A stretch of DNA of 4,907 nt from a virus (Duplodnaviria > Heunggongvirae > Uroviricota > Caudoviricetes). The stretch is from positions 1-4,907 of the IMG/VR virus record IMGVR_UViG_2563366942_000004; one strand, 5' to 3'. Every line of letters begins with the position of its first letter. The stretch's first letter is position 1. Shown here piece by piece: positions 1-4,907 of this stretch. The position numbers were made by a program, and so were the translations under genes. The notes under the pieces are model-generated. The model had not been told where the DNA came from and did no database searches. It saw only the letters and a program-made list of their open reading frames with translations.

Positions 1-1064
1 GTTTTCAGGCCGTTGGGATCTTTCAGTGCATCCAGCCAGTCATAGACAATCTGTACCCAGGTGGTGAACGGACTGTACGCCGTCCAGATATGGAAAGTGA
101 TGGAGCGCGGCGGCGGAATTTCATCACCCCGGGCGCTGAAAAACATCAGGCCGTCACGGGTCCACATGCCCGTGTTTTCACAGATCCACCGCCCGTTACT
201 CTGGTCAAGCTCAGACTGATGGATCACACAGCCATGATGCTCACAAAGGTAGAAAACACTTTCTGGCTTATTCTTCTCCCACTTAAGACCGAAAGGCGAG
301 GCATCATCGCCAAATTTCAGATACTGCTCCTCCCCACAGTGCGGACAGGGCACATAAAAACGCATGAAGTGTGCCGACTCGTTAGCGGCTTTTTCGATCT
401 GGCAGGAGCCTTTGATTTTAGGCGTCGAGCCGCGAATGGATTTTGGCCATACAGAGCCCTCAATACGTTTATCCCCCAGCAGGGTTGGCGAACCCTCTTT
501 TTCAACATCCGGTTCGAACGAGGAAAGCTCGTCATAACAGACCACATCCACGGATTTTTCACGGTAGTTTTTTGCTGCCGCACCACCCAGACACCAGAAC
601 CCCACACCGGAGGAAAAACGCTTCAGGGTGAGCGTATTATCGCGGTGTTTTCTTCCGAACCATGGAGCCAGCTCCAGCAATGCAGGAACATCCCTTATCG
701 TTGGCTCAACATGAGATTTCATAAAATCTTCAGCAGCTGAGTCCGTGGGCTGAAAAAGAAGGCTGTTGCGTGATTTATGCTCAATAAAATAAGCCTCCAC
801 TCCCAGCAACATCTTTGTATAACCAACACGGGCAGATTTAATCAGGTTAACCGTGCGAATCAGATCGTTGCCCATACAGTTCATGATGCCAACCTGAAAC
901 GGCAGTGTTTCCCATCGCCCCGGGGTATAAGACGACTCTTTAGGAAGGTAATAATGTTTATTGGCCCACTGAACTGTCGTCAGTGGAACAGGAATAATGA
1001 GAGATAAAAGCCCTGTAGCTATCGCACCGGCTGCATTAGCTGCCTTCTGCGCGTCTGAAATCAT
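1..1064 (-). CDS. A: Terminase large subunit (lambda gpA-like), N-terminal ~354 codons; 3' end continues beyond window start
   Basis: My own minus-strand translation from ATG at 1064..1062 gives [85 protein letters not shown], later [29 protein letters not shown], and [19 protein letters not shown] at the window edge. These follow my recollection of lambda gpA ([34 protein letters not shown]). The ORF track lists no minus-strand ORF here, which fits a frame that has no stop before the window edge. The start overlaps the nu1 stop by ~29 nt, as in lambda. Not checked by search. Confidence 0.9.
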
Positions 1065-1526
1065 CGATCCACCCGCCCACGTTTTCACCGGCCTTAGCTG
1101 CAACATTGGAGGCTTTCGCGATTTCAGTTTTCACCACATCAAGGTGTGATGGTGAAATGTCCGGATATTTACGCTGTAATGTCAACGGCACACGCACAAG
1201 TATCCCCGAAATCTCCTGTGCCACACGTTGCAGAATGAAGGTAAACAGTTCAGTTTCCAGCACTACTCCGTCTTCACGGGCATTTTTCAGTTCCTGCGCA
1301 TCTGCCTGCGCTTTTGTGAGCCGGTAGCGTTCATAGTCAATGGTGCCGGGTTGTAAATCTGACTCCGCTGCCGCACGCAAATCGTCCAGTTCTTTGCGGA
1401 GCTTTTCGTTTTCGATATCAGTTTCCCTCTGCGCATACCACTGAATTGCCATGGCAGTATCAAATACAGATTCAATGCCCTTACTACCTTTGGAGGCGCA
1501 AGGGAGTCCCTGAGACTGCCAGCGTT
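1036..1526 (-). pseudogene. nu1: Terminase small subunit Nu1, 3' fragment (about codons 22-182), cut off from its 5' end by the IS
   Basis: The track ORF 1036..1608 (-) reads ...[82 protein letters not shown]..., closely following my recollection of lambda Nu1 from its WQEQGMP motif onward. The 29 codons upstream of the W codon (1521..1519) are read from IS left-end DNA and the apparent start is TTG, so the ORF as listed is chimeric. Confidence 0.85.
1521..1526. repeat. Target-site duplication AGCGTT, left copy
   Basis: AGCGTT at 1521-1526 is repeated exactly at 3937-3942. The bases outside each copy differ, so the duplication is at most 6 bp. Removing 1527..3942 restores an uninterrupted nu1 frame (...[13 protein letters not shown]...). 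Confidence 0.75.
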
Positions 1527-1560
1527 TATGAGACGACAATAACTCAGTCCGCCTGGCGCC
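1527..1560 (+). repeat. IS left terminal inverted repeat (imperfect)
   Basis: Left end TATGAGACGACAA... against the reverse complement of the right end TATTAGACGTCAA...: 11 of the first 13 positions match, and both arms end in GCGCC about 30 bp in. Extent is approximate. Confidence 0.5.
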
Positions 1561-1619
1561 GATTATTCTGGCCGGTTTTGTAACCTGAGTGTCATTTACA
1601 TGATCCAACAGGAAATGGC

Positions 1620-3119
1620 GTGACGCTCAATACTTCTCAGGTCAGTTACTATATGACTCAGCGTAAGAAAGGTATAACTCAGCATATCTCGGCCATGAAG
1701 GCTGGTATCTCAGTCCGTTCTGGTCGTCGGATCGAAAAAGGAGAGTGGGCAAAAAACAGTGTTAGGCACTGGCGCACACGCAAAGATCCTCTGGAAGCTG
1801 TGTGGGACAGCATGCTTGTTCCTCTGTTGAAAGAGAGGCCGGCTCTGACACCAACAACTCTGCTGGAGATGCTACAGGATAAATATCCCGGCCAGTACCC
1901 CAACAGCCTTCGAAGAACAATGCAACGGCGGGTCCGCGAATGGAAGCTACAGTATGGTGCAGAGCAGGAGGTCATGTTCCGCCAGCGACATCAGCCCGGT
2001 CTGCGAGGTCTGTCGGACTTTACTGAACTGAAAGGTGTAGTTGTCACCATCGCCGGTAAGTTGTTGGCGCATAAGTTGTATCACTTCCGTCTGGAATGGA
2101 GCCACTGGAGCTGGATGCGGGTTGTGCTGGGTGGTGAGAGCTTCTCTGCTCTGGCTGAAGGTCTGCAGGAAGCCCTCGGACAACTGGGCGGAGTGCCGGT
2201 AGAACATAAAACGGACAGCCTGAGGGCAGCATGGAAACAACAGGGCGAAGATGGACGCCGCGAGCTGACTGAGCGTTATGCTGCTCTCTGTCAGCACTAC
2301 GGAATGCAGGGCGTACACAATAATGCCGGTCGGGGCCACGAAAATGGCTCGGTTGAAAGTGCCCACGGACATCTGAAAAGGCGTATCTGTCAGGCGCTGA
2401 TACTGCGGGGCAGTAACGACTTCAGCACCATAGAAGAATATCAGGCCTTCATCACTCAGCAGGTTATGCGGCACAACCGTAACAATCAGGATCTGGTCAA
2501 GGAAGAACGTCTTCATCTGAAACCGCTGCCGCTTCGTCGCAGTGCTGACTATGATGAGCTGACTGTGAGGGTTAGCCGCAGCAGTACCATCAATGTGAAG
2601 CACGTCGTCTACAGCGTACCTTCCCGGCTTGTAGGTCAACTGTTACGGGTCCGGTTATGGGACGATCGTCTGAGCTGTTACGTTGGCAGCAGCGAGGTCA
2701 TGAGCTGCCCACGTGTCAGACCAGAAAAAGGGAAGACGCGGGCCCGTCGTATCGACTTCCGACATGTGATCGACAGTCTGGCAAAAAAGCCCGGTGCGTT
2801 CTGCCATGCAACGCTGAGAAATGACATCCTGCCAGACGATGAATGGCGGAGGCTGTGGCGTCGCTTATGTAATCATCTGGAACCCGACATGGCAGGCAGG
2901 CTGATGGTACATGCTCTGAAACTGGCTGCAGGATACGACGATATCTCAGTCGTGGCAAAAGGTATGGAGCAGATGCTGAATACCCCGGGAAACGTGGATC
3001 TGCACCGGCTGATGCGCTTCCTGGGTATAAAGGAAAAGGCGTTGCCGGTAGTCAATGTGAAACAGCATAACCTGAGCAGTTATGAGCAACTACTGCGTGG
3101 CAAGGGCGGTTCGCAGTGA
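1620..3119 (+). CDS. istA: IstA transposase (DDE, IS21 family), 499 aa
   Basis: Track ORF 1620..3119, GTG start preceded by AGGAAA (1610-1615). Likely helix-turn-helix near the N-terminus ([16 protein letters not shown]). Candidate catalytic residues in [15 protein letters not shown] and [16 protein letters not shown], which is my reading of a DDE pattern. Stop overlaps the istB start (GTGA at 3116-3119). Confidence 0.9.
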
Positions 3120-3871
3120 GCAATATCCATCCCCTTGAACGCAGCCTGCGTAAACTACGCCTGACACGAGTTGGAGCTGAATGGCACGCTCTGGAAAAAC
3201 GAGCACTGGCAGAAGGCTGGACACCATCGCGCTATCTTCTGACGCTATGCAATGAAGAACTCCTGTGGCGCGAGAGTGAAAAACTGCGTCGTTATAAAAA
3301 GGAGGCCCGGTTGCCAGTTGCCAAAACGCTAAGCGAATACGACTTCAGTCAGGTGCCGGAACTGAATGGAGCTCAGTTCCGGCAACTCTGTGAAACGACA
3401 GACTGGGTTGATGCAGGAGAAAACGTTCTGCTGTTCGGAGCCAGCGGGTTGGGGAAAAGCCATCTGGCGGCAGCGATCGTGGATGGCGTAGTAGGCCAGG
3501 GCTACCGGGCCCGGTTCTACAGCGCAGGAGAGTTGTTGCAGGAACTACGTAAAGCCAGAGCGCAGTTGAAACTGAATGAGCTGCTACTGAAACTGGATCG
3601 CTACCGGGTGATAGTGGTGGATGATCTTGGCTATGTCAAACGCGACAGCGCCGAAACGGGAGTACTGTTCGAGTTAATAGCGCATCGCTATGAACGTGGG
3701 AGCCTGGTGATAACCAGTAACCATCCGTTCAGCATGTGGGGCAGCATCTTCGTGGATGAGACTATGGCGGTGGCGGCGGCAGACCGGCTGATCCATCACG
3801 GATATATGTTCGAACTGAAAGGTGAAAGCTACAGGAAAAAGACAGCGAAGGCAGTAACAAGCGCGACTTGA
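3116..3871 (+). CDS. istB: IstB AAA+ ATP-binding helper protein, 251 aa
   Basis: Track ORF 3116..3871. Walker A GASGLGKSHLA and Walker B VIVVDDLGY. GTG start overlaps the istA stop by 4 nt, the usual coupled arrangement in IS21-family elements. Confidence 0.9.
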   Translation: MSNIHPLERSLRKLRLTRVGAEWHALEKRALAEGWTPSRYLLTLCNEELLWRESEKLRRYKKEARLPVAKTLSEYDFSQVPELNGAQFRQLCETTDWVDAGENVLLFGASGLGKSHLAAAIVDGVVGQGYRARFYSAGELLQELRKARAQLKLNELLLKLDRYRVIVVDDLGYVKRDSAETGVLFELIAHRYERGSLVITSNHPFSMWGSIFVDETMAVAAADRLIHHGYMFELKGESYRKKTAKAVTSAT

Positions 3872-3902
3872 TGTCGCACTGAAGGGGGCGGCCAGTATAG
3901 TT

Positions 3903-3936
3903 GGCGCGAGTCGGCAAAACTAGTTGACGTCTAATA
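3903..3936 (-). repeat. IS right terminal inverted repeat (imperfect)
   Basis: Reverse complement of 3903-3936 is TATTAGACGTCAACTAGTTTTGCCGACTCGCGCC, which pairs with the left end at 1527-1560. Confidence 0.5.
3924..3929 (+). promoter_or_regulatory. Outward-facing -35-like hexamer TTGACG in the IS right end
   Basis: TTGACG sits 7 bp inside the right terminus and points out of the element. IS21-family right ends are known to carry an outward -35. I found no good -10 at the proper spacing in the present flank. Confidence 0.3.
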
Positions 3937-3942
3937 AGCGTT
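3937..3942. repeat. Target-site duplication AGCGTT, right copy
   Basis: Exact repeat of 1521-1526, directly abutting the IS right terminus. Confidence 0.75.
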
Positions 3943-4000
3943 CAATCGTCCGCGGGTCCACGTTGAAAATTTCGGCAAGCCTCTTTTTATTAACCTTCAT
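3937..4000 (-). pseudogene. nu1: Terminase small subunit Nu1, 5' fragment (codons 1-21)
   Basis: Minus-strand ATG at 4000..3998 translates [21 protein letters not shown], compared with lambda Nu1 MEVNKKQLADIFGASIRTIQN from memory. The frame then runs into IS right-end sequence (LLDVN, stop at 3922..3920). Confidence 0.8.
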
Positions 4001-4025
4001 GAAAACAACCCATTATCAAATACAA

Positions 4026-4143
4026 GGCCCGACATGAAAACGCCAGAAAAAGGCATTTTCGGACACTTTCATGTCGGACCTTTACGGATGCAATATTAAA
4101 AAAAAACAAAAAGTTATATTCGAGAAGTACCGACACGATTTTC
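4026..4143 (-). promoter_or_regulatory. cosB-like terminase-binding region: three R-like repeats around an A-tract
   Basis: CCGACATGAAA at 4029-4039 and CCGACACGATTTT at 4130-4142 share one orientation; TTTCATGTCGG at 4067-4077 is inverted; an A-tract lies at ~4095-4113. This order (cosN, R3, bend site, inverted R2, R1, nu1 start) matches what I recall of lambda cosB. Element limits are approximate. Confidence 0.55.
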
Positions 4144-4177
4144 CCTGAAAAATTTTCATAAATAGTGAAAAACCGCG

Positions 4178-4189
4178 AGGTCGCCGCCC
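4178..4189 (-). other. cosN cohesive-end sequence (minus strand 5'-GGGCGGCGACCT-3')
   Basis: The reverse complement of 4140-4189 is GGGCGGCGACCTCGCGGTTTTTCACTATTTATGAAAATTTTTCAGGG. The first 17 nt are identical to the phage lambda left end as I remember it and the following ~30 nt are near-identical. Plus-strand 4190-4200 (CGTAACCTGTC) is the complement of the lambda right-end ...GACAGGTTACG. Confidence 0.8.
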
Positions 4190-4225
4190 CGTAACCTGTC
4201 GGATCGCCGGAAAGGACCCGCAAAA

Positions 4226-4240
4226 TGATAATAATTATCA
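4226..4240. promoter_or_regulatory. Fur-box-like 7-1-7 palindrome TGATAATAATTATCA
   Basis: Exact match to the 7-1-7 Fur-box consensus TGATAATnATTATCA. It lies ~36 bp beyond cosN and ~150 bp upstream of the ORF at 4389. A weaker ATAATcaATTAT palindrome sits at 4283-4294. Function is inferred only. Confidence 0.45.
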
Positions 4241-4388
4241 TCTACATGTCACAACGTGCATCTACACCATCAAACCACGTCAAATAATCAATTATGACGC
4301 AGGTATCGTATTAATTGATCTGCATCAACTTAACGTAAAAACAACTTCAGACAATACAAATCAGCGACACTGAATACAGGGCAACCTC

Positions 4389-4622
4389 ATGTCAACGAAG
4401 AACAGAACCCGCAGAACAACAACCCGCAACATCCGCTTTCCTAACCAAATGATTGAACAAATTAACATCGCTCTTGTTCAAAAAGGGTCCGGGAATTTCT
4501 CAGCCTGGGTCATTGAAGCCTGCCGCCGGAGACTGTGCTCAGAAAAAAGAGTTTCGCCTGAAGCAAACAAAGAAAAGAGTGACATTACTGAATTGCTCAG
4601 AAAACAGGTTAGACCAAATTGA
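4389..4622 (+). CDS. Small ribbon-helix-helix-like DNA-binding protein (77 aa), function unknown
   Basis: Track ORF 4389..4622, with a weak AGGG ribosome-binding site 8 nt upstream. The segment RNIRFPNQMIEQINIALVQKGSGNFSAWVIEACRRRL follows the strand-helix-helix pattern of Arc/MetJ/CopG-type proteins after a basic N-terminal tail. Its position beside the nu1/cos junction resembles the small ylcI/ynfO-class ORFs of E. coli cryptic prophages; that is unverified recall. Confidence 0.55.
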   Translation: MSTKNRTRRTTTRNIRFPNQMIEQINIALVQKGSGNFSAWVIEACRRRLCSEKRVSPEANKEKSDITELLRKQVRPN

Positions 4623-4679: not shown

Positions 4680-4907
4680 ATGGCTCAGGTTGCCATTTTT
4701 AAACAAATATTCGATAAAGTGCGAAATAATTTAAACTATCACTGGTTTTATTCTGAACTAAAACGTCACAATGTCTCACATTACATTTACTATTTAGCCA
4801 CAGAGAATATTCATCTTGTTCTTGAAAACGATAATACGGTTTTAATAAAAGGACAGGGTAAGGTTGTAAATGTAAGATTTTCAAAAAATAAATGCCTTAT
4901 AGAAGCC
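4680..4907 (+). CDS. Hypothetical protein, N-terminal 76 codons; continues past the window end
   Basis: ATG at 4680 with a GGAAGG ribosome-binding site 7 nt upstream; open through 4907 ([76 protein letters not shown]). Absent from the ORF track, presumably because no stop falls in the window. About 30% GC over 4681-4907 by my hand count. I could not assign a family. Confidence 0.5.

Follow-up and report, generated by a model that had tools for sequence, protein, structure and literature searches.

The 4,907-nt stretch of viral DNA analyzed here (hereafter the window, taken at its full length) very probably carries the cosQ–cosN–cosB packaging site of a lambdoid prophage with the packaging module of coliphage 21, residing in icd of a strain near Escherichia coli MS 21-1, in a form that the phage 21 terminase could still use. 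The small terminase gene next to this site is split by an insertion sequence. The cos is itself an ordinary member of a thoroughly characterized, already known family; its significance lies mainly in the correct annotation of a textbook phage 21 cos whose prophage was inactivated recently.

A lambdoid prophage of E. coli MS 21-1 matches the window at 99.9% identity, with six single-base differences between the two (Table 1); thus, the window represents the DNA of a close relative and not the MS 21-1 assembly itself. Three of these differences are within the insertion sequence, and the one at 4221 directly abuts the R4/cosQ box. On the minus strand, the order of features in the right part is a lambda-like right chromosome end, the packaging site and then the terminase genes. 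In the RefSeq annotation of MS 21-1, the gene for the terminase large subunit adjoins that for the small subunit, which is split by the IS21-family element ISEc10 (coding for istA and istB), and genes of the YlcI/YnfO and DUF1398 families are found on the other flank of cos. The large-subunit frame extends for 356 codons without a stop in the window and recovers the GpA_ATPase domain in Pfam (E = 2.1e-57); the corresponding gene is annotated as intact in MS 21-1.

Table 1. Coordinates of the features found in the window, ordered by position.
Feature	Position	Strand	Basis or remark
Large terminase subunit gene, 5' part (phage 21 gene 2, lambda A homolog)	1-1064	-	Open to window edge
Small terminase gene, 3' part (gene 1 nt 59-549, including the duplicated 6 bp)	1036-1526	-	Rebuilt gene 549/549
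ISEc10 (IS21 family), 2,410 bp	1527-3936	+	RefSeq annotation, junction mapping; 6-bp target duplication AGCGTT
istA	1620-3119	+	Within ISEc10
istB	3116-3871	+	Within ISEc10; IstB_IS21 Pfam match
Small terminase gene, 5' fragment (phage 21 gene 1, nu1 homolog), codons 1-21 + 1 nt	3937-4000	-	64/64 nt identical to phage 21 gene 1
I0, putative IHF site overlapping the gene 1 ribosome-binding region	4003-4017	-	Exact match to annotated phage 21 I0
cosB R1 box TTTCATGTCGGGCCTT	4024-4039	-	Exact match to phage 21 R1
cosB R2 box TTTCATGTCGGACCTT (plus strand), inverted relative to R3 and R1	4067-4082	+	Exact match to phage 21 R2
I1, IHF binding/bending site between R3 and R2, plus-strand core AAACAAAAAGTTA	4104-4118	-	Exact match to phage 21 I1
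cosB R3 box AATCGTGTCGGTACTT, predicted small-terminase binding site	4125-4140	-	Exact match to phage 21 R3; lambda R3 11/16
I2, putative IHF site between cosN and R3	4146-4160	-	Exact match to annotated phage 21 I2
cosN GGGCGGCGACCT, large-subunit staggered nick site	4178-4189	-	Single exact match; identical in lambda (DE3) and phage 21
R4/cosQ region CGGGTCCTTTCC, needed to end packaging	4209-4220	-	Exact match to phage 21 R4 (M81255 136-147); identical in lambda
YlcI/YnfO-family gene (DUF3950)	4389-4622	+	Opposite to late-operon strand; region homologous to lambda right end
DUF1398 gene, start only	4680-4907	+	Opposite to late-operon strand; region homologous to lambda right end
Single-base differences, window versus MS 21-1	1764, 3132, 3887, 4221, 4266, 4617		

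The phage 21 records feature a curated annotation of the cos sub-sites, and all seven of these sub-sites were searched for as exact strings in the window. The cohesive-end 12-mer GGGCGGCGACCT was found as one exact copy on the minus strand and was absent from 200 dinucleotide-preserving shuffles. It is the annotated cos of lambda (as given in the record of the lambda derivative DE3) and also corresponds to bases 1-12 of the phage 21 genome. Thus, the original prediction, made from the letters alone, that the cohesive end is identical to that of lambda was borne out at 12/12 positions, with the aligned match spanning the full expected length. Further, three R boxes fitting the pattern TCRTGTCGGNNCTT were detected at 4125-4138 (minus strand), 4069-4082 (plus strand, inverted) and 4024-4037 (minus strand), compared to none in the shuffles. 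The layout foreseen for cosB, with R3, an A–T run and IHF site, an inverted R2 and R1, is hence a real one. The window therefore displays the cohesive end, a cosQ upstream of cosN, R boxes in -, +, - order and an IHF site between R3 and R2, which together typify a complex lambda-like cos. The cosB region is situated between cosN and the small terminase gene (gene 1), whose ATG is at 4000; I1 overlaps a 9-nt A/T run at 4098-4106, and the specificity base pairs 56 and 59 of R3 correspond to window positions 4134 and 4131, both of which are G. The range first proposed for the site (4026-4200) falls 2 nt short of the end of R1 and leaves out both cosQ and I0.

A BLAST search with 3990-4260 against phage records returned phage 21, PhiR57_1, 4A7, 1W, 3W, ev017 and Lambda_4C10 as the top matches (97-99.5% identity), whereas lambda was 83% identical over a match confined to the part ending near I1. 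We then counted identities from a three-way alignment of the window, phage 21 and lambda. Across cosB, the window is identical to phage 21 at 116/117 positions (99.1%) and to lambda at 69/117 (59.0%); R3, R2 and R1 are each 16/16 identical to their phage 21 counterparts as against 11/16, 9/16 and 8/16, respectively, for those of lambda, and the identity over 4026-4200 is 98.9% versus 69.1%. The R3, R2 and R1 16-mers are exactly those of M81255 and OL657228, which is the sequence mark of phage 21 specificity, and base pairs 56/59 of R3 are G/G in both the window and phage 21 but T/C in lambda. The affinity to lambda is instead seen in the cosQ–cosN stretch, which matches it at 42/43 positions, with the 12-nt R4/cosQ box and cosN being identical. 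A search for the lambda-type R box CGTTTCCNTTCT, allowing up to 2 mismatches, found none in or near cos; the only 2 matches were both inside the insertion sequence and at chance level. Lambda packaging specificity was accordingly rejected for the window cos. Thus, the characterization of this cos as near-lambda is true of cosQ and cosN only and fails for cosB.

Lambda and phage 21 have cosQ and cosN in common, yet their terminases discriminate between the two types of site by a factor of more than 10^3 (10^3-10^4) through contacts between TerS and cosB. The determinants of this specificity are TerS residues 20 and 24 and base pairs 56 and 59 of R3, with these two base pairs being critical (PMC4669245). 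It is cosB and the recognition helix of the small subunit, rather than the cohesive end, that set the packaging specificity; hence, a cosN identical to that of lambda is no proof that lambda could mobilize the locus. Judging from its sequence, the window cos should serve a terminase of 21 specificity only, and lambda terminase should not be efficient on it. 

The window is of the phage 21 type from cosN leftwards and closer to lambda from the cosQ–cosN spacer outward, indicating a mosaic joint at or beside cosN. The location of this joint (window 4178-4270) fits cos being a recombination hotspot among lambdoid phages. The 21-type cosB along with the start of gene 1 (a segment of 204 nt) occurs in ~11% of complete E. 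coli genomes (584/5,426), under a terminase small subunit annotation in all the matches listed, and is also found in the isolated phages 21, 4A7, 1W, ev017 and PhiR57_1. With this cosB type so widespread, helper phages of 21 specificity are not rare.

As had been noticed at the outset, the neighboring small-subunit gene is broken. Junction mapping placed nt 1-64 of phage 21 gene 1 at window 4000-3937, with the gene resuming from its nt 59 onward at 1526; this overlap means that AGCGTT is duplicated, at 1521-1526 and 3937-3942. The intervening ISEc10 has imperfect terminal inverted repeats of ~50 nt at 1523-1574 and 3889-3940. Upon removal of the element and one copy of the duplicate, the rebuilt gene is identical to phage 21 gene 1 over 549/549 nt and its product to phage 21 gp1 over 182/182 aa. 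This rebuilt product is 52% identical to lambda Nu1, gives a full-length match to Phage_Nu1 in Pfam (E = 1.9e-81), and aligns at its N-terminus with the solved DNA-binding domains of lambda TerS (1J9I and 6HN7). The recognition helix of phage 21 (E20, S24) is present in the rebuilt protein; in the window, ISEc10 separates codon 21 of the gene from codon 22, and the insertion thus falls between the specificity residues 20 and 24 of that very helix (PMC4669245, Feiss laboratory). Among the 5,426 complete genomes, ISEc10 is inserted here in just 2, namely MS 21-1 and CMZE120, and this rarity together with the lack of any other change in gene 1 indicates a recent event.

What remains of gene 1 is in two pieces. 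The 5' fragment reads on into the insertion sequence and meets a stop after 26 codons, such that it now codes for 26 residues; the MS 21-1 annotation records it as a partial terminase small subunit. The 3' part would yield, at best, a protein without the first 21 residues. Here, an ORF on the minus strand (1036-1608) starts inside the left end of the insertion sequence and runs into the 3' part of gene 1, and RefSeq gives a 167-aa "terminase small subunit" starting from a TTG at 1539. This predicted 167-aa product would keep the parts for oligomerization and large-subunit binding but lack residues 1-21, which belong to the DNA-binding domain.

The size of the prophage and the presence of a second cos or a resident helper were extrapolated from MS 21-1, the close relative with 6 differences from the window. 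In that strain, the prophage is in icd at chromosome positions 2,178,791-2,235,912, with 56,910 bp between 212-bp repeats that are the duplicated ends of icd. This length is ~117% that of lambda (48.5 kb), the isolated phages with this cos being 43-50 kb; efficient lambda packaging requires 80-105% of the wild-type length (PMC2771126). Of the excess, ~2.4 kb is accounted for by ISEc10 and ~3.5 kb by an insertion of IS3 with a group II intron. The MS 21-1 prophage has full head, tail, lysis, replication and immunity modules; however, the IS3-family element with its group II intron breaks the tail-tip gene and one lysis gene is truncated, which together with the split gene 1 amounts to several independent defects. 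Adjoining attR, the prophage carries sitABCD (iron/manganese uptake) as cargo.

No exact match to a second cosN was found in the 63 kb downstream of the site in MS 21-1, and the matches with 2 mismatches in this region are at chance level. Assays of helper packaging are designed with a second cos downstream at a packageable distance (PMC4669245). A second 21-type copy of cosB and gene 1 is likewise absent from MS 21-1, in which the 204-nt query matches in one place; hence, no helper of this specificity resides in the strain. A longer query matches in 4 places in MS 21-1, which, given the single place of the 204-nt query, are explained by the cosQ/cosN parts common to other lambdoid prophages.

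The small subunit is known to bind R3, R2 and R1, with an IHF-induced bend at I1 that brings R3 and R2 to face its dimeric winged helix-turn-helix (PMC4669245). By analogy to the lambda and phage 21 systems, gp1 would bind R3, R2 and R1 of the window cos via its N-terminal winged helix-turn-helix, with the IHF bend at I1 allowing R3 and R2 to face the gp1 dimer. The large subunit would thereby be positioned to nick cosN with a 12-nt stagger, and translocation of the DNA would start at the cosB end, run in the direction of decreasing window coordinates and stop at a downstream cosQ–cosN. The ISEc10 that appears to have recently entered gene 1 at the codon 21/22 boundary, within the recognition helix, would leave the prophage unable to make a small subunit that binds cos, while the cis site probably remains unchanged because no mutation has struck it yet. 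Such a site should still be recognized and cut by a terminase of 21 specificity provided in trans. The likely consequences of this cutting are complementation by the helper or stimulated recombination with the incoming phage, and recombination, as between lambda and DLP12, would be the more likely outcome; the 56.9-kb element is unlikely to be transduced efficiently as a whole. 

Lambda terminase is reported to cut a cryptic cos in the K-12 chromosome, and docL particles are reported to be packaged in situ from a prophage cos. In principle, the ISEc10-disrupted prophage might be a helper-dependent hitcher, with a superinfecting or induced phage of 21 specificity cutting the chromosomal cos and packaging in situ towards the tail genes; we consider this improbable. 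If true, it would give rise to particles or recombinants that move sitABCD and the adjacent host genes bluF-ycgZ-ymgAB at a raised frequency, as a cos-phage counterpart of lateral transduction. 

The original prediction had gone further in taking the site to be a cos of lambda specificity, open to any superinfecting lambda-like phage with Nu1, with a resultant rise in the helper-dependent transduction of linked markers. The lambda-identical cosN and R4/cosQ (42/43 across cosQ–cosN), the overall architecture of cosB, which is that of lambda, and the documented packaging in trans of a nu1-disrupted prophage (PMC2669165) are all in keeping with this proposal. However, the R boxes are of the phage 21 type, with no CGTTTCCNTTCT match near cos, and cosB as a whole is just 59% identical to that of lambda. 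Moreover, with a passive prophage carrying the phage 21 cos, helper packaging amounted to 1.24 per cell when the helper was 21-specific, as against 1e-4 (some 10^4-fold less) when it was lambda-specific and 3.5e-4 when it was N15-specific (PMC4669245 Table 6). To this are added, in MS 21-1, a 56.9-kb unit that exceeds 105% of lambda and the lack of a downstream cos within 63 kb. Thus, lambda specificity is very unlikely: with a cosB of the phage 21 type and G/G at base pairs 56/59, being lambda-like is not enough for a phage to act as helper, and this part of the prediction is not supported. What stands of packaging in trans is the retained cis site, the split small subunit and the precedent of Sp4 (PMC2669165); it was the class of helper that was wrong, and the size and topology of the prophage pose obstacles of their own.

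Conversely, the site might be a dead remnant, barred even to a 21-type terminase by an extra base in the I1–R2 spacer or by some undetected requirement. While every annotated phage 21 sub-site is exact, and the cos was to this extent rightly called intact, the window and MS 21-1 count 9 T in the homopolymer next to I1 as opposed to 8 T in all five isolated phages with this cosB (21, 4A7, 1W, ev017 and PhiR57_1). The extra T changes the distance between R3 and R2 by 1 bp, and the placement of these boxes about the IHF bend is thought to be important (PMC4669245). Yet the same 9-T form, 100% identical over the 204 nt of cosB and gene 1 start, is found in at least 34 complete genomes, including those of UTI89, NU14, CB9615 and BEN2908, and is annotated in all of these as terminase small subunit. 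Further, every protein-binding box is unchanged, and gene 1 is without decay apart from the insertion sequence. We regard the 9-T run as a tolerated polymorphism and an altogether dead site as improbable. A third reading, in which a satellite of the PICI kind keeps cos purposely to hijack the terminase of a helper, would account for a cos without a working small terminase, and the PICIs of E. coli do keep cosN while redirecting the helper TerS (PMC9026076). Nevertheless, this is a ~57-kb lambdoid prophage with head, tail, lysis, replication and immunity modules, whose defect is a recent insertion seen in 2/5,426 genomes; its cosB is of the same type as the helper's, instead of being a distinct site dependent on Rpp, and no Rpp-like gene was seen in the prophage annotation. 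The satellite reading was rejected on gene content (structural genes complete, no rpp annotated) and is extremely unlikely.

The reading of the locus as a phage 21 packaging site in a disrupted lambdoid prophage can be placed among known systems as follows. Its closest relative is the cos of coliphage 21 (GenBank M81255, X02501, OL657228; Feiss laboratory), all of whose sub-sites along with cosN are exact in the window. The likeness includes cosB (116/117), gene 1 (549/549 once the insertion sequence is removed) and the same integration locus, icd; the window differs in having one extra T beside I1, a gene 1 interrupted by ISEc10, and a right chromosome end that is more lambda-like from the cosQ–cosN spacer outward. 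Lambda shares cosN, the R4/cosQ box and the architecture of cosB (R3, IHF site I1, inverted R2, R1) upstream of the small terminase gene, but differs in its R boxes (8-11 of 16), cosB (59%), base pairs 56/59 (T/C) and small subunit (52%).

Two defective prophages offer functional parallels. In Sp4 of E. coli O157:H7 Sakai, nu1 is disrupted by ISEc8 and the cos is identical to that of Sp14; Sp4 DNA is packaged, most likely by the Sp14 terminase (PMC2669165, Asadulghani et al. 2009), and the principle that a prophage with an IS-split nu1 can be packaged in trans is thus already demonstrated. Like the window, Sp4 is a lambdoid prophage with an IS-split small terminase gene and an intact cos, but it features ISEc8 instead of ISEc10 and occupies another genomic site. 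Moreover, Sakai has a co-resident prophage with an identical cos and intact Nu1, whereas MS 21-1, being without a second 21-type copy, has neither a co-resident identical cos with an intact terminase nor a second cos within 63 kb downstream, and its 56,910-bp cos-to-cos unit is above the efficient packaging range. In the case of the defective prophage DLP12 of K-12, recombination with lambda clusters at cos, with half of the junctions beside it, and the genes neighboring cos can be rescued into viable phage (PMC3945230). DLP12 similarly keeps its cos in a defective prophage; it is, however, homologous to lambda across nu1, A and cos (PMC3945230), whereas the module in the window is of the phage 21 type and the prophage nearly complete. 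The locus studied here furnishes a further example of an insertion sequence in a terminase gene leaving a cis site usable by related phages, and both defective prophages and what they carry (in this case sitABCD) may continue to be exchanged in this way, a principle shown earlier for Sp4 and DLP12.
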